Positions 42,285-54,010 of a stretch of DNA of 64,000 nucleotides are shown in pieces. The DNA lies in contig LSNR01000002.1 of assembly GCA_003056165.1 (NCBI GenBank), positions 2,726 through 66,725 of the forward strand, in the 5' to 3' direction. The stretch comes from Parcubacteria group bacterium M6-OD1-3 (GTDB lineage: Bacteria > Patescibacteriota > Minisyncoccia > Moranbacterales > UBA9337). The notes beneath the pieces are model-generated. The model was not told the origin of the DNA, did no database searches, and worked only from the letters and a program-made list of their open reading frames with translations. Made by a program: the position numbers and the translations under genes. The first letter of the stretch is position 1. Every line of letters begins with the position of its first letter.

Positions 42285-42602
42285 ATGACTACTAAATACA
42301 GAGGCTATCGACTTAAAACATATCTTAATTTTTTTCAAATTTTTATATTTGATATTACAAAGCTATGGAATAGAACAGGATTTATTCATTGTCATAACGC
42401 CAACTATTTAATGAGAATATTATTGGTAAAAAGCGGTTTTTTTAAAAATAGCGATATTCAAAATAAATGGACACTGGTGTGGTATTTTTCTCCACATCAA
42501 TATCTACAAATAAAATTAAATAATGGCAGTACTATAAATATTGATATTTGGGGAAGTGCTTATGGAGTTAAATTTGGTAATTATGCGCATGGCATTCATT
42601 AA
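42285..42602 (+). CDS. small transglutaminase-like (Cys/His papain-fold) domain protein
   Basis: 'FIHCHNANYLMRILLVKSG…H…INIDIW' pattern; start overlaps (TAATG) a 41-aa upstream ORF at 42160-42285. Confidence 0.35.
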   Translation: MTTKYRGYRLKTYLNFFQIFIFDITKLWNRTGFIHCHNANYLMRILLVKSGFFKNSDIQNKWTLVWYFSPHQYLQIKLNNGSTINIDIWGSAYGVKFGNYAHGIH

Positions 42603-42640
42603 AGTTTTTTCAATTCCGTCTCCAAAACCTTTTTTCCATC
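42593..42640. repeat. 48-bp perfect direct repeat, left copy (right copy 52773-52820)
   Basis: cattcattaaagttttttcaattccgtctccaaaaccttttttccatc read identically at both sites. Confidence 0.9.
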
Positions 42641-42685
42641 TTCAGTGAATAGAAATTTAATAAAAAAAACCAATTTAGTAAAAAA

Positions 42686-43707: not shown

Positions 43708-44310
43708 ATGAAGATAATCATTATCCGTCATGGTGTGGCGGAAAAAAGATTGAGCGGACAGGACGATTTGGATCGTCCTTTGATGAAAAATTGCGAGGAG
43801 TTTATCCCTCGACTCGGCGAATTTGATGCCGTTTTCTCTTCGCCGGCTCGCCGGTGTATTGAAACGGCAAAACTGGCGAGCGGACAAAACCCTATCGTTA
43901 TCAATTCTCTTTCCACTCATTTGTGGAATGTAAAAGTTGATAATGTTGAGGGTTGGGAACTAATTGAAAAATGTTACTATCTTCCGGATGGTAGCATGGC
44001 AGAAATTCCGCTCACTATGGCGTGGAAAAATATCTCTGCGCCGAAACAATCAGAAGCATGGAGACTTATTACCGGCGAGGCAATAAGTAAAATGTTTCAT
44101 GGCTACGGAATTGCGTGGAATCGCGTGCTTATTTGCATGCATCAATTCCACGCCCAAATGCTGGCGATTCGCCTGTTGGGCGAAAATCAGCCGGCAGTTG
44201 AAAAGTTTATTCGGGAAATGTATCTCCCTCCCGGAGGAACGATTCCATTAGAAGTTTTCCCCCTAGTGATTCGACCATCCAGAGGAAGAAATGGAGGAAT
44301 TTTTTTCTAG
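43708..44310 (+). CDS. histidine phosphatase superfamily (SixA / PGAM-like) protein
   Basis: 'IIIIRHGVAEK' RHG motif at N-terminus; locally GC-rich. Confidence 0.7.
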   Translation: MKIIIIRHGVAEKRLSGQDDLDRPLMKNCEEFIPRLGEFDAVFSSPARRCIETAKLASGQNPIVINSLSTHLWNVKVDNVEGWELIEKCYYLPDGSMAEIPLTMAWKNISAPKQSEAWRLITGEAISKMFHGYGIAWNRVLICMHQFHAQMLAIRLLGENQPAVEKFIREMYLPPGGTIPLEVFPLVIRPSRGRNGGIFF

Positions 44311-44318
44311 GTTTTTGG

Positions 44319-44358
44319 CCATTATCTCGTTATGGCTAAACGAGATAATGGTTTTCTT
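44319..44358 (+). terminator. 12-bp stem hairpin ccattatctcgt…acgagataatgg plus T-run
   Basis: Read directly. Confidence 0.55.
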
Positions 44359-44425: not shown

Positions 44426-45817
44426 ATGGTTAAAAATAAAAATAAAAAAACCTCTTGGATTGACGACTATGCCAAAGCGGTAAAAGACTTTACTTATGAT
44501 CATGACCCGAATTCTCATCAACCTTTTGACGCCTTTTATTTCTATCCTTACTACTTTGATTTATGGTTGGATAAAATTTATCGCGCGATTGTTTTAATTA
44601 AAAGCAATGGAATTAACGATAAGGAAATTTTTTCCAAAATACCATCCCCTTCTTCTTTACGATTTGTATTTTACACAATCGTTAATATGACAGCTTATCT
44701 CAAATATCCAAAAACAAAATCTCGTGTTATTATTGATTTTTTCTTTAAATGTCTATCTAGTCAATCAAAAGATAATAATGTTTTTCATCAAGAAAGAATT
44801 TTGCTTAGAAGCAACGCAGAACTTAAAAAAATATTAACCGGCACCAAAAAAATAAAAACAAAATCCGAACAGCAATTAATTTCCAGATTGATCGGAACAT
44901 TATTGATGTATAATCACATTCTTTACAATGATTATTCAACTGACTATGGTTGCTGGATAGAGGGACCCTATAAAGTTGGTAATCGGATAATTTTAATTAG
45001 AAATTATCCGGATTTGTCGCCTAAAAATTTATGGCCGGAGTTGGAAAATCAATTCTTGAAAGACAAAAAGATTATAACCGTCTACAAAAATATTCCAATC
45101 AAAATGCAATATATGTCCAGCCACTTAGTTGCTAAAAATAATTATCAAAACAATCTTATCGCTTATCAAATATTCTCTAACGGCAAACCGCTCAATGATC
45201 TTTCCAGTTTGGACCAACTTATTAAAGACATTGCCAAGACAACCAGTCAACTGTACGAAAAAGTACGAAAAAAGAATATGACTGAAATTAAGGAACTTTT
45301 TTTACGACAGCAAGGATATGAACTAAAATGGCTATTTGATTTGGCTGGACTGGACTGGCGACCGGGCAACAAAAGACTTAAGCGAGCACAAAAAAGTAGA
45401 GTCCGCCGAAAAATTACTCCCGCCAGTAAACCGAAAACTCAAGAAGAATATGAATCACACATAGGAATTGATTTTTTGAGAAAATTATTTCAAAAAGATA
45501 TTACTCTTTATGGAAAAATAGCCAATAAAGGATTTGCTATCGGTAAAACGAAAATCGTTAAAACGCCAAAAGATTTTCGTTCATTTAAAATGGGTGATAT
45601 TTTGGTAACAACAATTACCAACCCCTCTTTTGTTGGCATCATTTCCAAAGCTGCCGCCATTATTACGGAACTAGGTGGCATCACTTCTCACCCGGCAATC
45701 ATTTCCCGAGAATTTAATTTGCCTTGTTTAGTTGGAGTCAAAAACGCCACCAAAAAATTAACTGATGGCGAATATATAGAAGTCAACGCTTACAAAGGGA
45801 AAGTCAAAGTTTTATAA
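44426..45817 (+). CDS. protein with unknown N-terminal domain (about 370 aa) and C-terminal PEP-utiliser mobile ('swivel') phosphohistidine domain
   Basis: 'GDILVTTITNPSFVGIISKAAAIITELGGITSHPAIISREFNLPCLVG'. Confidence 0.7.
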   Translation: MVKNKNKKTSWIDDYAKAVKDFTYDHDPNSHQPFDAFYFYPYYFDLWLDKIYRAIVLIKSNGINDKEIFSKIPSPSSLRFVFYTIVNMTAYLKYPKTKSRVIIDFFFKCLSSQSKDNNVFHQERILLRSNAELKKILTGTKKIKTKSEQQLISRLIGTLLMYNHILYNDYSTDYGCWIEGPYKVGNRIILIRNYPDLSPKNLWPELENQFLKDKKIITVYKNIPIKMQYMSSHLVAKNNYQNNLIAYQIFSNGKPLNDLSSLDQLIKDIAKTTSQLYEKVRKKNMTEIKELFLRQQGYELKWLFDLAGLDWRPGNKRLKRAQKSRVRRKITPASKPKTQEEYESHIGIDFLRKLFQKDITLYGKIANKGFAIGKTKIVKTPKDFRSFKMGDILVTTITNPSFVGIISKAAAIITELGGITSHPAIISREFNLPCLVGVKNATKKLTDGEYIEVNAYKGKVKVL

Positions 45818-45898
45818 TAATTACGAAATTTCAATAAAAAAAGCCTTGCCTCACATAAACTGTGTAAAGCAAGACTGAAATAATCTTAGACTTGGAAA

Positions 45899-46549
45899 CT
45901 ACAACGATAACTCAAAGCCGTCGTTGTAACCCTCGGAAACATTTTCCATTCCCATTTCTTTTCCGAAGTTATAAACACATTCACCATGGGTGATCACCCA
46001 GGCAATTGTGTCATCTTCTGCTCGTTTGAGCATTTCATAAATCTCAGTAATTACAAGACTCATTCTTTTGGCAATATGTTCGGGACCCTCCGCCCCAAAC
46101 CTCAATCGCTCCTCACGATATTGATCGGTCGAAAAAGCCTTCCAGAAATCCGCTCCCTGCCCCACACACTTTTTGCGGAGAAACTCAGCGAACGAAGTTT
46201 GGAACATAAGTGCCTCGCCCAGCCGGAAATCCAACCGAACATCAATAACGTTTCCGTTAGCATCCCGAATCTCCTCGGCAATTATTTTTGCCGTTTCATA
46301 AGCTCTTTGCCCCAATGTCGGGTCATCAAGCCAATAGGTTGGCGAGTACACGATTAGAAAATTCGTCGCTGGCACCATGTCAACCTCGGTAGATAGACGC
46401 AACAAGGTTTTAATCTTAACACCCTCAACACCCTTCGGAGTCAAACGACCCAATGTCGCCTGCTCCTCTGGAGTTGCGTTTCCTATGCCACCCTCCGGCC
46501 AACTGGAATCGTAGCGACCGTGTCGCTGGATAATAATTTTCTTCATCAC
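45899..46549 (-). CDS. histidine phosphatase superfamily protein (second copy)
   Basis: 'IIIQRHGRYD' RHG motif; locally GC-rich. Confidence 0.65.
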   Translation of the reverse strand: MMKKIIIQRHGRYDSSWPEGGIGNATPEEQATLGRLTPKGVEGVKIKTLLRLSTEVDMVPATNFLIVYSPTYWLDDPTLGQRAYETAKIIAEEIRDANGNVIDVRLDFRLGEALMFQTSFAEFLRKKCVGQGADFWKAFSTDQYREERLRFGAEGPEHIAKRMSLVITEIYEMLKRAEDDTIAWVITHGECVYNFGKEMGMENVSEGYNDGFELSL

Positions 46550-46659: not shown

Positions 46660-47823
46660 CTATATAGTTTTTAAATCAAAATCAGTCAAATCAGGTGTCA
46701 TTACTTTTGCTTTTAATTCATCCGGCAAATACCAAACAAAGAAATAAAATGTTCCTGCATGTCCTGTTGGCTCGTCAATAAATTTAATCCCTTGCTTCTT
46801 TAATAATTTTTTCATTTTAACTTGAATTTCGCCGAGCCAGAGCGGAAGTAATACCGGGTCAATCATTCCCATCACATCTTTATACATTGCCAAGTTTTTT
46901 ACTTGCTCATAAGATAAAACGAATAATTCATATTCTTTTTTATTAAGTTTTTTCTTTGCTTCAAACTTTATTCTTCTTATTTTTTTCTTCATCAAAGCAT
47001 GTCTTTCTATCAACTTTTTGTTTCCCTTCCTAAACTCAACCGCATGAGTTAAAGCGTTATAAATAAGAGTTCTGTCACCACCTCGCATTTTAGTTTGCTC
47101 TATGGGAGTAAGAAGTAGCTTCTCTTTTAATACTTTAAAATCCTTTCGTTGAATAATATTATAAACTTTATCCCAAATCAAATTTATTTTCTTTTCATTT
47201 TTATCGACATTCTCATCTATCAAAATAATCGCTCTATTTAATAATTTTTTTATTTCAGGATCCTTAGATAAAATTTCTAAAATCTTTTGTCCGCCAAAAG
47301 AATCCAATAAATACAAGTCTGCATAATCTGTTTGTATTAAATCTCGTTGCAAAGAAGAAATCTTTTCCTCAAAATCTTCTGCGTCATTTCCAACATCAAC
47401 AATTTTGTATATAAGTCTTTTTAAATTGCTTATGAAAAACTCATGTAAAGGTCCATCAGAAAATAAATAATTAACTATCCAAAAACGATAGCAAATTAAT
47501 TTATTAAACCTTTGGTCTATACTAACTAAAAATTCCAGATCATTTTTATCACCGTTACCATAGTCTTTTTTGATTTTTGCAAAACCAACAAGTAATTCTT
47601 TTTGCGCCCAATCACCATATTTTCTAAATTTTTTTGGATTGTCAAAAACATTCTTAACAACACTTTCGTAATAAGAAATTATTGGAGGAAATTTATATGG
47701 ATAAAAACGCAAAAAACCTTCCAAATCGTTTGAAAGTGTTTGTGGAAATTTTAAGTATTTCTTATCAATCTTCATAAGTATAAATATTACCATTATCCCC
47801 ATCCAAAATAACTTTCTGTCCAT
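46660..47823 (-). CDS. hypothetical protein; possible paralogue of the N-terminal domain of 44426-45817 (shared F-x-F-YPY-x-F motif); start uncertain (overlaps upstream gene; alternative ATG at 47775)
   Basis: ORF track; similarity by eye only. Confidence 0.5.
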   Translation of the reverse strand: MDRKLFWMGIMVIFILMKIDKKYLKFPQTLSNDLEGFLRFYPYKFPPIISYYESVVKNVFDNPKKFRKYGDWAQKELLVGFAKIKKDYGNGDKNDLEFLVSIDQRFNKLICYRFWIVNYLFSDGPLHEFFISNLKRLIYKIVDVGNDAEDFEEKISSLQRDLIQTDYADLYLLDSFGGQKILEILSKDPEIKKLLNRAIILIDENVDKNEKKINLIWDKVYNIIQRKDFKVLKEKLLLTPIEQTKMRGGDRTLIYNALTHAVEFRKGNKKLIERHALMKKKIRRIKFEAKKKLNKKEYELFVLSYEQVKNLAMYKDVMGMIDPVLLPLWLGEIQVKMKKLLKKQGIKFIDEPTGHAGTFYFFVWYLPDELKAKVMTPDLTDFDLKTI

Positions 47824-49045
47824 CTTTTAAAACAATTGTTGCATTTTGAGTCCCAACTACGGCGGGAATATTAAATTCCCTTGACATAATGGCCGCATGG
47901 CACAAACTTCCTCCCAAGTCAGTGATAATTCCTTTAGATCTTTTTATTCCCAGTAAAAAAGGAGGTCTGGTCATCTTGGTAACAAGAATATCGCCTCTTT
48001 TTATTTTTGCCAATTCTTTACTCAAGCTTCCTGACATATTCATATCAATAATTCGAACAACACCGCTAACTTTTCCTCCTGAGGCTGAATACCCTGCCAA
48101 AACTCTTCTTGGCTTTCTTTCAAATTTCTTAAAATATATTCTCATTGCTTTTTCCAACGCCTGATATTCTATTGAAGATTGCAACCAACCTTTCTTATCG
48201 TGAGTAATTGGAATTCCTTCTATGTGCAGTTCTCCTATTATTTGCCGAATATCTTGATTTGGAGTAAGTCCAGTTTTATCATAGGTAGTCACAAGTCTTC
48301 CTCGTCTAAATGTGCTAAAACCATAATAACTTTTATTTAACCCAACCAATTGATACCCCCACCAACCAACGGCTTTACCTCCCTTAAATTTAATATTTAT
48401 TTTATTTTTCTTATCTTCAAGCAGCGTCGACTCGTAAGACTTACAATGACTTTTGTTAAAAATAATATCCACTTCCTTGTTGTTTATAAAAGGACCAAAC
48501 CTTGCTCCAAATTCAGTATTGATATTTTGCAATAATTTATCAGAAAATTTTACCTTTAGCTTTTTGATCACAACCACCGTGCCACTTGTTTTTTTATTTA
48601 CACCATTTTCAATATAAAATGGATATTCATTCCAATCTCCATTCTTCAACCAATCATCTTCACTGTATTTAATAATATATCTTTTATTAGAATTAATTTG
48701 AGTTGTATTTAATTCAAAAACCTTACCCAAAAATGATGTAGCTGTTTTTAATCCTAAGCCAAATTCTCCAAGTTTATTTTTCTTACTGGAAAATCCAAGT
48801 CTAATTGCTCTAGCGGACTCAATTTCACTCATTCCTCTTCCATTATCTATCACCTCAATTTTTTGAGGAGTTATGTTTATTTTTACTATCAATTTTTTAT
48901 TCGGTAAACGGGCGTCAATTGCATTATCAATAAGTTCAGATAAAGCTTCTTGAATAGAATATCCGGTCTGACTTATTTTTGTCAAAATACTCCTATGTGG
49001 AGTTATCTCAATAAACTTTTTCTCTATTTTTTTCGCCTTTTTCAT
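47765..49045 (-). CDS. GHKL (Bergerat-fold) ATPase fused to C-terminal PEP-utiliser swivel phosphohistidine domain
   Basis: N-box 'ELIDNAIDA', G1 'DNGRGM', G2 'GEFGLGLKTA'; C-terminus 'GDILVTKMTRPPFLLGIKRSKGIITDLGGSLCHAAIMSREFNIPAVVG'. Confidence 0.75.
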   Translation of the reverse strand: MKKAKKIEKKFIEITPHRSILTKISQTGYSIQEALSELIDNAIDARLPNKKLIVKINITPQKIEVIDNGRGMSEIESARAIRLGFSSKKNKLGEFGLGLKTATSFLGKVFELNTTQINSNKRYIIKYSEDDWLKNGDWNEYPFYIENGVNKKTSGTVVVIKKLKVKFSDKLLQNINTEFGARFGPFINNKEVDIIFNKSHCKSYESTLLEDKKNKINIKFKGGKAVGWWGYQLVGLNKSYYGFSTFRRGRLVTTYDKTGLTPNQDIRQIIGELHIEGIPITHDKKGWLQSSIEYQALEKAMRIYFKKFERKPRRVLAGYSASGGKVSGVVRIIDMNMSGSLSKELAKIKRGDILVTKMTRPPFLLGIKRSKGIITDLGGSLCHAAIMSREFNIPAVVGTQNATIVLKDGQKVILDGDNGNIYTYED

Positions 49046-49334
49046 TCCAAAATATTTTAAATTTTAAGTAATTTCAAAAATTCTACCATTAATTTCTATT
49101 ATTAACATATCTTTTTTATTATTCTCAGTCAAGTATCTGTACACGGTGTGTTTCATCTTATTTAGTATTATCATTGTCATGTTAATTACATTTAAAAATG
49201 TCATACCATTTATCAAATAGAAATGTCATGCTTTGAAAAATTTATTGATTTTTCAAATTTTAAAAAGTGGTCAAATTATGCACGTGCATAATTTGACCAC
49301 GGTCGAAAATTTATTTAATTTCTTTTGAAAAGTA

Positions 49335-51059
49335 TTATTTTGCTTTCTCCAAAATCCTCACAACGCCATTATCCGCATCAACTTCAACCAAATCACCGTC
49401 TTCCAAAACTTGTGTGGCAATTTTTGTTCCGATGATACACGGTTTTTTTAATTCACGAGCCACAATGGCAGCGTGACTTGTGATTCCTCCTTCATCTGTA
49501 ATAATTGCTTTAGCTTTTCTCATTAAGGGCATAAATTCTGGTCTTGTCATAGATGTAACTAAAATATCCCCTTTTTTGAATTTATTAAATTCTGAAAGTC
49601 TTAACACTGTTTTTACTTTACCTTCAATATCTCCTTTATATGCAACTTGCCCCATAAGCGATTCTTCGTCTCTTTTACAAGATTTAATATATTTTTCTTC
49701 CATTTTTTTCTTTATATCTTCAAAATTCTTATATTCAAATTCTGTAGAACCATCATAATTATGCAGAAATAAAACCCCTTCTTGTCTACTAATAATCTCC
49801 TCTTTTATTTTCTCTAAATAGTTTTTTCCTTTCAAAAACTCCTCAAAGGCACAATAATAAATTAATTCATTATTTAATCCAATTTCTCTAAAAAATCTTT
49901 CCCCAACTTTAAAGTTGATTACAATTCCCTTTCCCATAACATCTTTTTTCTTATCTCTTAAAACAAGAATTGTTTGTATATAATCGACTAATTGTTTTTC
50001 TTCTTTGTTTAATGAATCTCTCCAATTCTTAAAAGATTCTTTTGTTTCTTTGTATTCCAATTCTTCTTTTTTAAGTTCTTTAGATGCCATCTTATGATTC
50101 CTTAAGTATTCTGAGTAATCTTTCTTTATATTTTCTTCCATGTCTTTTATTGATTTTATTTCTATATATCCAGAGTAAGCATATTGCATCTCTTCAGCCA
50201 TATCCTTTACGTTTCTTAAATTTAATATTAAGTTTAGGATTTTTTTATGCCTTCTTTTATCAAAAGAATCCTCTGTTGGTATAATTGCTTTATCCCAGAC
50301 ATTTTCAACAACTTCAGGCTTTAAATCTAAATTGTGTTTATTAATAAATTCAAAGACAAGTTCCTTATCAAATTGTGTTGAGAACCATGCCGTGCAATTA
50401 TATTCCCTTACTAAACTAATTAGTCTTTCTAATTTTTTAATAATTTCTTCTTCTTTATAAGATTCTATATTTTTGTAAGACAAATCAAAATAAATTCCAT
50501 TTATCTCCTCCTCTAAAGTCTCTAAATATGAGATAGTTTTAGATAGTATTTTGTTATCTCTCATATACTTTACAAAAAAGTTTTCTGAAATCATATTATA
50601 CCTAGTTTCAGACATCAAAACAAAAGCTTTACCTTTTTTCATTGCTATAAGAAATTTTATATTTAAATCTTTAACTTTTCTGCCGAAATTAGGGGTAAAT
50701 CCTCCTGCTCCTGCAGCTAAAATTGAAACAGGAACTAAAGGATAAAAAACATCTCTTTCAAATCCTTTCATAAATTTACCTAAAAGTGTCTTGTGTTTTT
50801 GGATTATGCCACTAAGAGTCGTTATCGGTCTACTTTGCGTGATATAAAATTTTCCATTTTCTTGAGCCCATTCTATATCCTGCGGAAGTCCGTAATGGTC
50901 TTCTATTTTTTTAACAAGTTTCGCCAATTCTAAAATCTCTTTATCTGATAAAACTTGCTCTTGACCTTTTTCACCCAACTTCAACCACTCATTACCACCA
51001 CCATCTTTACGATAAAGTCCCCTGTCCTGCTCACTAATATTTTTTTCTAAAATTTTCAT
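49335..51059 (-). CDS. C-terminal fragment of a PEP-synthase / rifampin-phosphotransferase-like protein (end of ATP-grasp, central domain, swivel His domain)
   Basis: 'PQDIEWAQENGKFYITQSRPITTL' (end of PPDK_N) and 'GDILVTSMTRPEFMPLMRKAKAIITDEGGITSHAAIVARELKKPCIIG'. Confidence 0.75.
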   Translation of the reverse strand: MKILEKNISEQDRGLYRKDGGGNEWLKLGEKGQEQVLSDKEILELAKLVKKIEDHYGLPQDIEWAQENGKFYITQSRPITTLSGIIQKHKTLLGKFMKGFERDVFYPLVPVSILAAGAGGFTPNFGRKVKDLNIKFLIAMKKGKAFVLMSETRYNMISENFFVKYMRDNKILSKTISYLETLEEEINGIYFDLSYKNIESYKEEEIIKKLERLISLVREYNCTAWFSTQFDKELVFEFINKHNLDLKPEVVENVWDKAIIPTEDSFDKRRHKKILNLILNLRNVKDMAEEMQYAYSGYIEIKSIKDMEENIKKDYSEYLRNHKMASKELKKEELEYKETKESFKNWRDSLNKEEKQLVDYIQTILVLRDKKKDVMGKGIVINFKVGERFFREIGLNNELIYYCAFEEFLKGKNYLEKIKEEIISRQEGVLFLHNYDGSTEFEYKNFEDIKKKMEEKYIKSCKRDEESLMGQVAYKGDIEGKVKTVLRLSEFNKFKKGDILVTSMTRPEFMPLMRKAKAIITDEGGITSHAAIVARELKKPCIIGTKIATQVLEDGDLVEVDADNGVVRILEKAK

Positions 51060-51061
51060 AA

Positions 51062-52054
51062 TTATTTCTTTAACAACAACAAAAGCAAGCCGACAATTCG
51101 GTCTTTGTCTTTTGGTTTTGATTCTACTACCAAAAGAGTGATAGCAGTCAATGCTTCTGGAGTAATTTTATGTCTAAACTTTATGCCAACTTTTTGCAAA
51201 AACCAAATAAAAGCAAACGCTCCTGTTCGTTTGTTACCGTCGGTGAATGGATGATTTTTAACTACAAAATATAATAAGTGAATTGCTTTTTCTTCTACGG
51301 TTAAATAAACATCTTGACCAAAAACTGCCTGCAAAACATTTCCTAAAATTCCCTCTAAAGTTTTTTGTTTTTTCTCTTGGGCAAATAATTCTGTTGCTTG
51401 TTTTTTCTTAATTAGTTCTTTTTTGAATTTTGCCACTGCTTCATATAATTCATCAGCTTGAATTTTCACTTTCTTTTTAGTGCTTCCTTTAATCGGAAAT
51501 TTATCTTCATCATAAGATTCTAAAGATAACCACGCCCCGGAAAAAGATTTTATCAATTCTAAAATATCAGCAGTTTTTACTGCATTATTTTCGGGTAATA
51601 ATTTTTTGACATCATCAACTGCTTTGATGAATTTATCGTAATTTTTCCCGATGATTTCCGGATTCATATTATAACCTTGATAAATATATTGCCTTAATAT
51701 TCTATTTGACCATTTTCTAAATTTTACGGCTTGAGCTGAATTAGTACGATAACCAACTGCTAAAATAATATCCAAATTATAGAATTCAACTTGTCGTTTT
51801 ATTTCCCTTTTTCCCTCTTTTTGAACTTGTGCAAAAATTGCACTAGTTGAATTTTTATCAACCTCCTTATCTTTAAAAATATTTTTAATATGCTTAGTTG
51901 TCACAGAACGCTCTATTCCAAAAACCTCCGCAATTTGTTTTTGCGTCGCCCAAATAGTTTCATTACCAAAATCACCCCGTAATTCAATTCCGCCGTTTTT
52001 TGCTTGATAAATTACCAAGTTTTTATTTAATTTTACAATCTTTTTCTGAACCAT
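51062..52054 (-). CDS. Fic/Doc-family protein with N-terminal RhuM-like domain; intact Doc-type motif HPFTDGNKRTGAFA
   Basis: ORF track; motifs read directly. Confidence 0.8.
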   Translation of the reverse strand: MVQKKIVKLNKNLVIYQAKNGGIELRGDFGNETIWATQKQIAEVFGIERSVTTKHIKNIFKDKEVDKNSTSAIFAQVQKEGKREIKRQVEFYNLDIILAVGYRTNSAQAVKFRKWSNRILRQYIYQGYNMNPEIIGKNYDKFIKAVDDVKKLLPENNAVKTADILELIKSFSGAWLSLESYDEDKFPIKGSTKKKVKIQADELYEAVAKFKKELIKKKQATELFAQEKKQKTLEGILGNVLQAVFGQDVYLTVEEKAIHLLYFVVKNHPFTDGNKRTGAFAFIWFLQKVGIKFRHKITPEALTAITLLVVESKPKDKDRIVGLLLLLLKK

Positions 52055-52080: not shown

Positions 52081-52779
52081 TTATTTTTTACCAACAACAT
52101 AACTATCCGGTGTGATTTGTCCAGAGACAATAGATTCTCCCAAACCAAATCCTGCTTCAATTATTATTTGATTTCTATCTTCTGTTACTGGATGAACAGA
52201 AAAAGCAATGCCTGATTTTTCAGAATTTATCATTTTTTGGATTACTACTGCGACGGAAATTTTATCTTTATTTAATTTTTTTTCAAAACGATAAAAGATT
52301 GCTCTCGACGTAAATAGTGAAGCCCAGCATTTTTTAACATTTTTCAATAAGTCTTTTTCGGTTGTATTTAAAAAAGAATCTAATTGTCCTGCCCAAGCAT
52401 TTTCTTGTCCGTCTTCCGCTGTAGCTGAGCTACGCACTGCAACAAACTTGGCATTTAACTTTTTAAATTCTTTTTCAATTTCTTTCTTGATTGCTTCTGG
52501 AATTTTTGCTTTTAAAATCAAAGACCGGATATTTTTTGACGCTTTTTCAACACTTTGAAGCTTTTTGACATTTACTTTTTTCAACTCTTTTTGTATTTTT
52601 GAAGTTAGATTATTTTTTTCTAAAAATTCTTCAAAAGTTTTTGTTAAAATCACAAAACCGTCTGGAACTGGAATTCCCGCTTGTGTCATCTCACCAAGTG
52701 AAGCCCCTTTACCTCCAGCAATATGAGTGTCTTTTTTTGATAGTTGTTCAAATGATTTGGTAAACATATCTTCATTCAT
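52081..52779 (-). CDS. N-terminal fragment of the same PEP-synthase-like ATP-grasp (PPDK_N) protein
   Basis: 'GGKGASLGEMTQAGIPVPDGFVIL'; ends …DSYVVGKK, where E. coli PpsA continues …DEFYVHKPT…. Confidence 0.75.
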   Translation of the reverse strand: MNEDMFTKSFEQLSKKDTHIAGGKGASLGEMTQAGIPVPDGFVILTKTFEEFLEKNNLTSKIQKELKKVNVKKLQSVEKASKNIRSLILKAKIPEAIKKEIEKEFKKLNAKFVAVRSSATAEDGQENAWAGQLDSFLNTTEKDLLKNVKKCWASLFTSRAIFYRFEKKLNKDKISVAVVIQKMINSEKSGIAFSVHPVTEDRNQIIIEAGFGLGESIVSGQITPDSYVVGKK

Positions 52780-52820
52780 TAAAGTTTTTTCAATTCCGTC
52801 TCCAAAACCTTTTTTCCATC
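52773..52820. repeat. 48-bp perfect direct repeat, right copy
   Basis: See 42593-42640; here it spans the NUDIX stop / PEP-synthase-fragment start. Confidence 0.9.
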
Positions 52821-53264
52821 CTTATTAAACAAAAAATTACCTTCAAAGTTTTTACCAGATAATAAAAGTGGCAACCAATACTGATCATCAACCCACATTT
52901 TTTTATAAGGAATTTCACTATGTTCAAACCATCTAGGCAACATTTCTTCCGTTTCTTCCGGCTCACCAATTATATTATCGCTGACAATAGAGAAAAAATT
53001 TACTTCCAAAATTTCTTTTAATTTATTTTCAAAACGAAAATCTATTATACCTCTTTTTATAAGACTCTCTTTGCTTTTTATTTTGAGACAACTTTCTTCA
53101 AATAATTCTCGCTCTGCTGCCTCAAAAATATTTTCATTTTTTTCTACTTTACCGCCAAAACCATTCCATTTCCCCATCCCAAACCCTCTCTTTTTCATTC
53201 CCAAAAGAATTTTTTCATTATCATAAACTAAAATCAGTGTCAGTTTTTGTTTTTTCATTATCAT
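52779..53264 (-). CDS. NUDIX hydrolase
   Basis: Nudix box 'GGKVEKNENIFEAAERELFEESCL'. Confidence 0.8.
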   Translation of the reverse strand: MIMKKQKLTLILVYDNEKILLGMKKRGFGMGKWNGFGGKVEKNENIFEAAERELFEESCLKIKSKESLIKRGIIDFRFENKLKEILEVNFFSIVSDNIIGEPEETEEMLPRWFEHSEIPYKKMWVDDQYWLPLLLSGKNFEGNFLFNKDGKKVLETELKKL

Positions 53265-53308: not shown

Positions 53309-54010
53309 CTATTCAAAACTATTTTTTAATATTTCTTTATTTTTTAAAATACCCCGTAGCTGTCTATTGGCAAACTGCTCATACTCTTTCTTATCCCTAG
53401 TGAAAGAATCTAAAATATATCCAGTTGTACAAAGATTAGTTTTCATATTTTTTATATATTCAGGAAGGCTGGTTCTATATTTATTATTTCTGCCACTTTC
53501 ATCTCTTTTAATTTTGTGGACTTTAAAATTTAAATTGACATATACTGATAATCTATTCAAATATTCTTGTGTGCCAATATGCTTAGCTTTAAATTTCCCT
53601 TGAAACAAAGATCCATTTCTTTTGTTTTTCTTATTAAAATACATAGTATAACCTGTTCCAATCTTTTGCATAAATTTAGAAATACCACCTTCAATATTTT
53701 GTCTCAAGATAAAATGAAAATGATTTGGCAACAAACAAAATGCCACTACTTCTACTAACATGGAGGCCTTGCCTCCATTCTTAATCTTTTTAGAATACTT
53801 GTATTGTGGGACACCACCTAGAGAGTTTTCTTGATTAAATAAATCAATAATTTGTAAAAATTTAAAAAAATCTTGGCTATCTTCAAAAATAACTCTTCTA
53901 TCTATACCTCTATTGTAAATATGATAAAATTCGTCTGTGCTAAATCTTATTTTTCTTATACTCATACTCAATTTTATATCATTTTCCCCATATGGAGGCA
54001 AGGCCTCCAT
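53309..54010 (-). CDS. REP-associated tyrosine transposase (RAYT, IS200/IS605-like HuH Y1)
   Basis: 'FYHIYNRGIDRRVIFED', HuH 'LLPNHFHFIL', 'YTMYFNKKNKRNGSLFQGKFK'. Confidence 0.75.
   Translation of the reverse strand: MEALPPYGENDIKLSMSIRKIRFSTDEFYHIYNRGIDRRVIFEDSQDFFKFLQIIDLFNQENSLGGVPQYKYSKKIKNGGKASMLVEVVAFCLLPNHFHFILRQNIEGGISKFMQKIGTGYTMYFNKKNKRNGSLFQGKFKAKHIGTQEYLNRLSVYVNLNFKVHKIKRDESGRNNKYRTSLPEYIKNMKTNLCTTGYILDSFTRDKKEYEQFANRQLRGILKNKEILKNSFE

Follow-up and report, generated by a model that had tools for sequence, protein, structure and literature searches.

A predicted MORC-type ATPase fused to a phosphohistidine swivel domain in a candidate four-gene cassette of Patescibacteria and gut Clostridia

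The stretch of DNA studied here, called the window throughout, comprises 64,000 nucleotides of contig LSNR01000002.1 from Parcubacteria group bacterium M6-OD1-3 (assembly GCA_003056165.1). At 47765..49045 of its minus strand lies a gene for a 426-amino-acid protein in which a Bergerat-fold (GHKL) ATPase domain, predicted to be of the MORC type, is followed by an S5-like transducer and by a PEP-utilizers swivel domain with its phospho-acceptor histidine. Comparison of loci from several lineages identifies it as the lead gene of a conserved four-gene cassette, apparently inherited as a unit, whose other products are an orphan helical partner, a His_Phos_1-superfamily protein and a PPDK_N ATP-grasp protein. 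We propose, with roughly even confidence, that the cassette encodes a split dikinase-type relay, in which the swivel histidine would be loaded in trans by the ATP-grasp and would act as a write/erase switch on a complex of the MORC-type ATPase and the partner, a proposal based on sequence comparison and on analogy with known enzymes.

The GHKL-S5-swivel protein and its family

The lead gene was delineated from its open reading frame (ORF), Pfam matches, homolog family, AlphaFold2 model and Foldseek matches. A preliminary description, made from the sequence without database searches, had placed the ORF at exactly these coordinates, and the three Bergerat-fold motifs that it quoted are all found in the protein: the N-box ELIDNAIDA at residues 37-45 (48911..48937), the G1 motif DNGRGM at 67-72 and the G2 motif GEFGLGLKTA at 93-102. 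Pfam confirms both halves of the proposed GHKL-swivel architecture, with HATPase_c_3 at residues 29-137 (E-value 1.3e-17) and HATPase_c at 31-104 (1.5e-9) in the N-terminal part, and PEP-utilizers (PF00391) at 349-419 (5e-25) in the C-terminal part. On the minus strand of the window the ATPase domain, also supported by alignment, corresponds to 48635..48961, and the swivel, by its Pfam borders and with further support from alignment and PDB sequence matches, to 47789..48001. What had been missed is the S5-domain-2-like transducer between the halves (residues 230-303, 48137..48358, minus strand), seen by alignment, by Foldseek and as a Pfam Morc6_S5 match (E-value 8.5e-6) that is borderline at 26.3 bits against a cut-off of 26.2. 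The swivel was correctly recognised, but its size is about 110 amino acids (residues ~315-424) and not 80; it is separated from the S5 domain by a linker of ~7 residues. Its phospho-acceptor is His383 (codon 47897..47899), within GGSLCHAAI (GGSLCHAAIMSREF). The AlphaFold2 model of the protein has a predicted local distance difference test (pLDDT) of 80.6 and a predicted template modelling score of 0.66, with disorder confined to an N-terminal strap and the ATP lid.

A search over 5.8 billion proteins yielded 598 matches, the best 120 of which were examined for architecture. These are 53-98% identical, almost all of them 415-430 amino acids long (range 391-441), and carry HATPase and PEP-utilizers in 120/120 cases, with S5 listed in 117/120. 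The recurrence of the same architecture in these best 120 of 598 matches, from independent assemblies, rules out the assembly chimera that the preliminary description had considered as an alternative. The homologs come from Buchanan-, Colwell-, Vogel-, Campbell-, Nomura- and Kuenenbacteria and Saccharimonadia, all Patescibacteria, and also from Clostridia, where 613 member sequences, located on 244 contigs, fall into a single 90% cluster. In the species genomes of GTDB, a scan detected the family in ~33 species, one of which is a DPANN archaeon. Database names given to its members are "ATP-binding protein" or "PEP-utilizing enzyme". Searches of phage records, plasmid records and IMG/VR returned no full-length match, only cross-matches to the swivel.

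An alignment of 28 family sequences shows invariant residues throughout the chain. In the ATPase these are E37/N41/D44, D67/G71 and G93-E-F-G96/G98/K100/T101; further along follow RRGRL at 247-251, HDKK at 282-285 and His383, and the whole swivel motif GG.LCHAAI..REF..P.VVGT does not vary. Because of these invariant residues, the ATPase half and the swivel half are both judged to be under purifying selection. Two degenerate copies were also encountered: the GHKL-swivel gene of Clostridium sp. CAG:354 (L034:9995-11047) has an internal deletion at about residues 181-247, and in a degenerate cassette (L042:3422-4361) some 21 N-terminal GHKL codons remain, with the ATP-grasp gene directly after.

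Concerning the type of ATPase, a PDB sequence search placed the N-terminal half nearest to MORC3, MORC4 and MORC2, and Foldseek on the AlphaFold2 model returned MORC3 (E-value 3e-15), MORC4, SMCHD1, MORC2, Hsp90 and MutL-N40 as top matches. Those to MORC3, MORC4, MORC2, SMCHD1 and MutL-N40 cover the ATPase and S5 domains together. The sequence features of the GHL/MORC type are present, i.e. ExxxNxxD, DxGxG, a glycine-rich lid, the Thr motif and an S5 transducer after the ATPase. The HisKA/DHp domain with its H-box, as expected of a sensor histidine kinase, has no Pfam match in the 426-residue protein, and after the S5 domain Pfam gives PEP-utilizers only, with neither the CW zinc finger nor the coiled coil of eukaryotic MORC. 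Sequence and model together assign the ATPase to the GHL clade, as a predicted hydrolase of MORC/MutL type and not a histidine-kinase domain. Proteins of this clade hydrolyse ATP in a closed dimer. A swivel-less relative, 26% identical over residues 16-318, is encoded on a Haladaptatus plasmid with MazF, an HsdR fragment and two large helicases as neighbours, and such a conflict-system context has been reported for paraMORCs (PMC8011034).

As for the other half, the C-terminal ~110 residues matched PEP synthase (PEPS; 8a8e, E-value 2.8e-28) and Listeria rifampin phosphotransferase (RPH; 5fbs, 2e-21) in the PDB sequence search, and residues 313-420 of the family profile also align with pyruvate kinase, in its C-terminal domain (structures 2e28 and 3t05). 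Judged by sequence similarity, the swivel is of the PEPS/RPH type, the group that is loaded by a PPDK_N ATP-grasp. Pfam finds no PPDK_N ATP-grasp in the 426-residue chain, nor is an acceptor domain, either a PEP-utilizers_C TIM barrel or a RIF-binding domain, recognisable in it.

The four-gene cassette

The proteins of the window were mapped onto 45 loci, and all ORFs of 36 non-redundant loci were then clustered label-free. The partner was recovered in 36/36 loci, the GHKL-swivel protein in 33/36 (in the other three its gene is cut off at contig ends), the ATP-grasp in 29/36 and a His_Phos-like protein in 27/36, and this clustering yielded no further family conserved across lineages. In a Campbellbacteria genome and in gut Clostridia the genes lie on the same strand in the order GHKL-swivel, a Pfam-less protein of ~370-390 amino acids, a protein of ~270 amino acids and a PPDK_N-only protein of 236-315 amino acids. 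The four families co-diverge, the Spearman coefficients between their pairwise identities being 0.83-0.92 over the 19 loci with a complete set of four, and in these loci the swivel is the most conserved element (mean identity 78.5%). Taken together, the comparison of loci indicates that the GHKL-swivel gene is the lead gene of a conserved four-gene cassette inherited as a unit. PADLOC 2.0 matched the cassette to no defence system; it reported a weak match of the N-terminal GHKL part to MzaB only (7e-9) and none for the partner, the phosphatase or the cassette ATP-grasp. PHROGs likewise held no match for partner or phosphatase.

The partner, a 371-amino-acid orphan encoded at 46660..47775 (minus strand), was defined by the mapping of loci, by its overlap with the lead gene and by its AlphaFold2 model, which is all-helical with a pLDDT of 94.3. 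Its family is small, with only 49 clusters among 1.84e9 representatives. The end of the GHKL gene, TAT GAA GAT TGA, contains the ATG of the partner, so that the two genes overlap by 11 nucleotides (tATGaagatTGA). This overlap is kept in the candidate phyla radiation (CPR) and in Clostridia at nearly all loci, being slightly different in the DPANN locus (L035), and is found as well in distant partner homologs (P0250, P0252), whose upstream gene also ends in a swivel. Its conservation sets the start of the window partner at the ATG at 47775, and implies that translation of the partner is coupled to that of the GHKL-swivel gene.

Third in the unit is the gene of a 216-amino-acid His_Phos_1-superfamily protein (45899..46549, minus strand), recognised by the RHG...R...H signature. 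In 14 sequences of the cassette family R9, H10, R82 and H188 are invariant; PF00300 is reached by 9/14 members, the best at 1e-6, and the window protein stays below its cut-off (19.2 vs 21.7 bits). SixA, a member of the histidine-phosphatase superfamily, dephosphorylates the phosphocarrier NPr (PMC7948535). The window holds another such pair on the plus strand, namely a second His_Phos_1 protein of 200 amino acids with the N-terminal RHG motif (43708..44310), which adjoins the gene of a second swivel protein of 463 amino acids (44426..45817), the latter composed of a Pfam-less N-terminal region and PEP-utilizers at residues 388-458. This second pair strengthens the predicted link between these phosphatases and swivel proteins. 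The pair is convergent with the cassette and has a terminator-like hairpin between its two genes (44317..44353). The N-terminus of the 463-residue protein was considered as a relative of the partner and rejected, the comparison being not significant.

Two terminator-like hairpins, both on the minus strand, mark the borders of the unit in the window. One of 15 pairs (49267..49300) stands between the cassette and an upstream gene for a 574-amino-acid protein, and the other, of 14 pairs with a T run (45842..45876), comes directly after the His_Phos gene, where the unit ends. Read in the direction of transcription, the hairpins at 49300..49267 and 45876..45842 bracket the GHKL-swivel, partner and His_Phos genes as one three-gene unit.

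The fourth family, the ATP-grasp, retains in its stand-alone cassette members the PPDK_N motifs GGK, VAVRSSA..ED, Q.M, E..GLGE..V.G, P.DIEW and QSRPITT. Most of the cassette ATP-grasps are of this stand-alone form, in which the chain ends with the domain boundary QSRPITTL and so has no swivel, hence no phosphocarrier, in cis. In most loci the sole swivel nearby is that of the GHKL protein. We know of no role for the PPDK_N domain besides the loading of a swivel histidine. A precedent for loading between subunits is provided by phenylphosphate synthase, whose beta subunit passes a diphosphoryl group to a histidine of the alpha subunit (PMC6114531). Given the swivel-less PPDK_N protein, the lone swivel nearby and this precedent, loading of His383 in trans would be the most economical reading.

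In the window itself, the parent gene of the ATP-grasp codes for ~805 amino acids, comprising ATP-grasp, middle domain and swivel, and lies upstream of the cassette. It is now in two pieces. The N-terminal fragment (52081..52779, minus strand; 232 amino acids, covering PPDK_N columns 3-224 by Pfam and alignment) shares 67% identity with the stand-alone ATP-grasp from the cassette at locus L001. The C-terminal fragment is the 574-amino-acid protein (49335..51059, minus strand), made up of the last 89 residues of the ATP-grasp (50793..51059), the middle domain and a swivel at residues 494-565. Between them stands a RhuM plus Fic/DOC gene (51062..52054, minus strand), identified by Pfam and matching the PADLOC candidate PDC-S23 (E-value 3e-105). 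Compared with unsplit orthologs of 804-807 amino acids (60-78% identical), the insertion falls cleanly in a variable loop with no residues lost; the N-terminal fragment closes with a stop codon, and the ATG of the C-terminal one lies 2 nucleotides past the RhuM/Fic stop. A mobile gene of the defence type could have interrupted the ~805-residue gene, and the two halves may both have kept their function. A BLAST extension suggested homology between the S5 region of the lead protein and the pre-swivel region of the 574-residue protein; it was discarded, since alone it is not significant (E-value 0.12).

Some further observations concern ATP-grasp and swivel proteins elsewhere. Many Patescibacteria have PPDK_N plus swivel proteins of 1100-1400 amino acids (P0267, P0268, P0274-P0287 and others); the first of these covers 99% of the 806-residue query at 75% identity and is 354 amino acids longer, which points to a large uncharacterised insertion. 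Two Chloroflexota loci (L039:5354-9355 and L040:2939-6829) encode chains of ~1300 amino acids with one PPDK_N and two swivels. Six loci (L008, L009, L010, L029, L030 and L032) carry, beside the cassette and a single ATP-grasp, one to three extra genes in which a domain of 250-420 amino acids is joined to a swivel; their N-terminal domains belong to at least three unrelated, Pfam-less families. Such arrays look like one loader serving several carriers. In 10 of the 11 Clostridia loci (L018-L025, L027 and L034) the contig stops ~150-250 nucleotides past the cassette ATP-grasp gene, a sign that a repeat or variable element may follow. No Rfam family was found downstream of the Clostridia cassette in L026, where the contig continues.

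Proposed loading of the swivel histidine and rival readings

In the proposed relay, the cassette ATP-grasp would bind ATP and put a (di)phosphoryl group on His383 in trans, leaving AMP, Pi and phosphohistidine (His~P), with chemistry as in PEPS, PPDK and RPH and a division into subunits as in phenylphosphate synthase. The phosphorylated swivel would then dock back on the complex of MORC-type ATPase and partner, where the mark would either gate the clamp cycle or be passed on. Finally, the His_Phos_1 enzyme would take the phosphate off, so that the system is reset. Because this mechanism assigns loading to the ATP-grasp, the GHKL site would be a regulated ATP hydrolase and not the loader. The relay builds on the domain architecture, on catalytic motifs that are invariant in all four proteins, and on the linkage, coupling and co-divergence of their genes; loading in trans, erasure by the phosphatase and the role as a switch would complete it.

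Several points weigh against this relay. The co-divergence coefficients mainly reflect the split of CPR from Clostridia. A nearby ATP-grasp is missing from three loci (L031, L035, which is the DPANN one, and L036) despite enough downstream sequence, another (L033) holds an ATP-grasp fragment only, and the phosphatase is absent from about a quarter of the loci, e.g. L008 and L029. The activity of the window ATP-grasp is uncertain, since its gene lies upstream, encodes a swivel of its own, has been split by RhuM/Fic and has a terminator between it and the cassette. Furthermore, if writer and eraser are co-expressed, a futile cycle would result as long as neither is gated.

The preliminary description had offered the fusion as a new way to load a swivel histidine. 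On this reading the GHKL domain would bind ATP and phosphorylate the histidine directly, as a CA domain does the DHp histidine, and the ATP-grasp would either work on other swivel proteins or operate in the reverse direction. Such a role would agree with the complete invariance of the ATP-binding motifs (28 sequences), with the position of the GHKL domain N-terminal to the swivel, which is the place of the nucleotide-binding domain in PEPS and PPDK, and with the few loci that lack a nearby ATP-grasp as well as the split state of the window copy. It fits poorly with a domain that Pfam and Foldseek identify as a GHL/MORC hydrolase with an S5 transducer, and not as a kinase CA domain, in a protein where HisKA/DHp was not found; to our knowledge, no member of the GHL/MORC clade acts as a protein kinase. 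The swivel being of the PEPS/RPH type, and a swivel-less PPDK_N ATP-grasp being conserved in the same cassette (29/36 loci) with no other possible client in most loci, also speak against the GHKL domain as loader, which we regard as improbable. More improbable still, to the point that we give it very little weight, is a reading in which the swivel is a non-catalytic appendage serving regulation or oligomerisation and no working phosphocarrier, in the manner of the additional PEP-utilizer domain at the C-terminus of Bacillus-type pyruvate kinase. The solved structures 2e28 and 3t05 do provide a precedent for a swivel on an enzyme that is not a dikinase, but the invariance of His383 and of the full swivel motif, in what is the most conserved part of the cassette, is not what would be expected of an appendage, and the conserved linkage to an ATP-grasp and a histidine phosphatase would be left unexplained.

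A different outcome of the same loading step is rather unlikely in our estimate, namely that the cassette is a dikinase in the stricter sense. The ATP-grasp would again load His383 in trans, and the swivel would hand the phosphate on to a ligand, either a small molecule or a macromolecule, that sits on the partner or in the Bergerat pocket. The partner would then occupy the post-swivel place that the acceptor has in PEPS, PPDK and EI, or the Bergerat pocket the pre-swivel place that it has in RPH, and the His_Phos_1 enzyme would act on the product and not on His~P. We advance more tentatively than the relay itself the idea that the cassette represents a previously unrecognised system, in which a MORC ATPase of the DNA-clamp type is wired to a dikinase-style relay of writer, carrier and eraser plus a helical partner. 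Its role would possibly be that of a conflict or defence module in which a conditional write/erase cycle burns ATP to AMP, or else that of a chromatin or DNA switch gated by energy charge. Horizontal transfer could have carried the cassette between Patescibacteria, gut Clostridia and DPANN archaea. A sub-variant of such a system would preserve part of the preliminary idea, with the swivel histidine carrying phosphate back and forth from the ATP-grasp to the Bergerat site.

Genomic setting and known systems

The unit and its neighbours are enclosed by a direct repeat, whose copies at 42593-42640 and 52773-52820 are identical over 48 nucleotides and lie 10,180 nucleotides apart; extended to 63 nucleotides (42593-42655 and 52773-52835), they are 90% identical. 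The right copy is formed by the 3' end of a NUDIX gene and the first 7 nucleotides of the ATP-grasp gene, and the left copy is an orphan remnant. Between the copies lie TrmB, both His_Phos genes, all three swivel genes, the RhuM/Fic gene and the ATP-grasp, and the repeats suggest that this 10.2-kilobase segment is an inserted or rearranged island. Inside it there is no integrase, and no Rfam family was found. Just outside, adjoining the NUDIX gene, is a gene for an IS200-like Y1 transposase (53309..54010, minus strand; PF01797, E-value 7.6e-9). The flanks of the island are housekeeping genes, with ATP synthase and TatD on one side and MetRS, pyruvate kinase and Pol I on the other. Over the whole window nearly all genes are on the minus strand, the guanine plus cytosine (GC) content is ~31%, and 29 of the 32 blocks of 2 kilobases show a GC skew between about -0.2 and -0.39.

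MORC/GHL ATPases and swivel dikinases are each well studied, and the literature searched contained no report connecting them and no description of a GHKL-swivel fusion or of the four-gene cassette. If true, the relay would provide a new regulatory input for the MORC-type class of ATPases and a new type of client for PEPS-like ATP-grasp domains, and would assign a definite function, open to experiment, to four "hypothetical" genes of ultra-small Patescibacteria and of abundant human-gut Clostridia. With four genes in ~4 kilobases, the cassette is small enough for reconstitution in vitro to be feasible. It is built from known parts, and whether these amount to a distinct new kind of system seems to us doubtful, though not far-fetched.

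Among systems with a MORC-type ATPase, the cassette shares with paraMORCs and with MORC2/3/4 the HATPase_c_3 plus S5 transducer, the GHL motif set and the best structural matches. It differs from them in having no nuclease, helicase, methylase, CW or coiled-coil partner; the ATPase is accompanied instead by a phosphocarrier domain, an ATP-grasp, a phosphatase and an orphan helical protein. Proteins composed of HATPase_c_3, HEF_HK and HATPase_c, predicted to be two-component-like relatives of paraMORCs (PMC8011034), resemble it in that an N-terminal MORC-type GHKL domain is joined to a histidine-phosphorylation module. That module is of the histidine-kinase type, with an H-box and a second CA domain, whereas the one of the cassette is a PEP-utilizer swivel with an ATP-grasp. 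Besides these proteins, no other published link between paraMORCs and phosphohistidine signalling was found in the literature searched. The third gene of the cassette belongs to the same superfamily as SixA, which acts on the histidine of a phosphocarrier, NPr (PMC7948535); the cassette phosphatases are larger (216-349 amino acids) and distant, and their role on such a substrate is predicted.

With RPH and PEPS/PPDK, the cassette has in common the swivel histidine in a GGxxxHAAIxxRE motif and a PEPS/RPH-like ATP-grasp. Those enzymes unite the three modules in a single chain that includes the acceptor, a TIM barrel or a RIF-binding domain, whereas the cassette swivel is in a chain with neither ATP-grasp nor acceptor domain, and the ATP-grasp is a separate gene (29/36 loci). 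The best reading, by analogy, is that the cassette would function most like a split dikinase of the phenylphosphate-synthase type. In that enzyme of Thauera aromatica (PpsABC), as in the cassette, the ATP-grasp-type and histidine-bearing subunits are separate and co-encoded, and an accessory third protein is present. Its histidine receives a diphosphoryl group in trans (PMC6114531), a step for which an equivalent in the cassette is inferred. The histidine subunit of phenylphosphate synthase corresponds to the central and acceptor parts of PEPS and the product is phenylphosphate, whereas in the cassette the histidine domain is carried by a predicted MORC-type ATPase in which no acceptor domain is recognisable.

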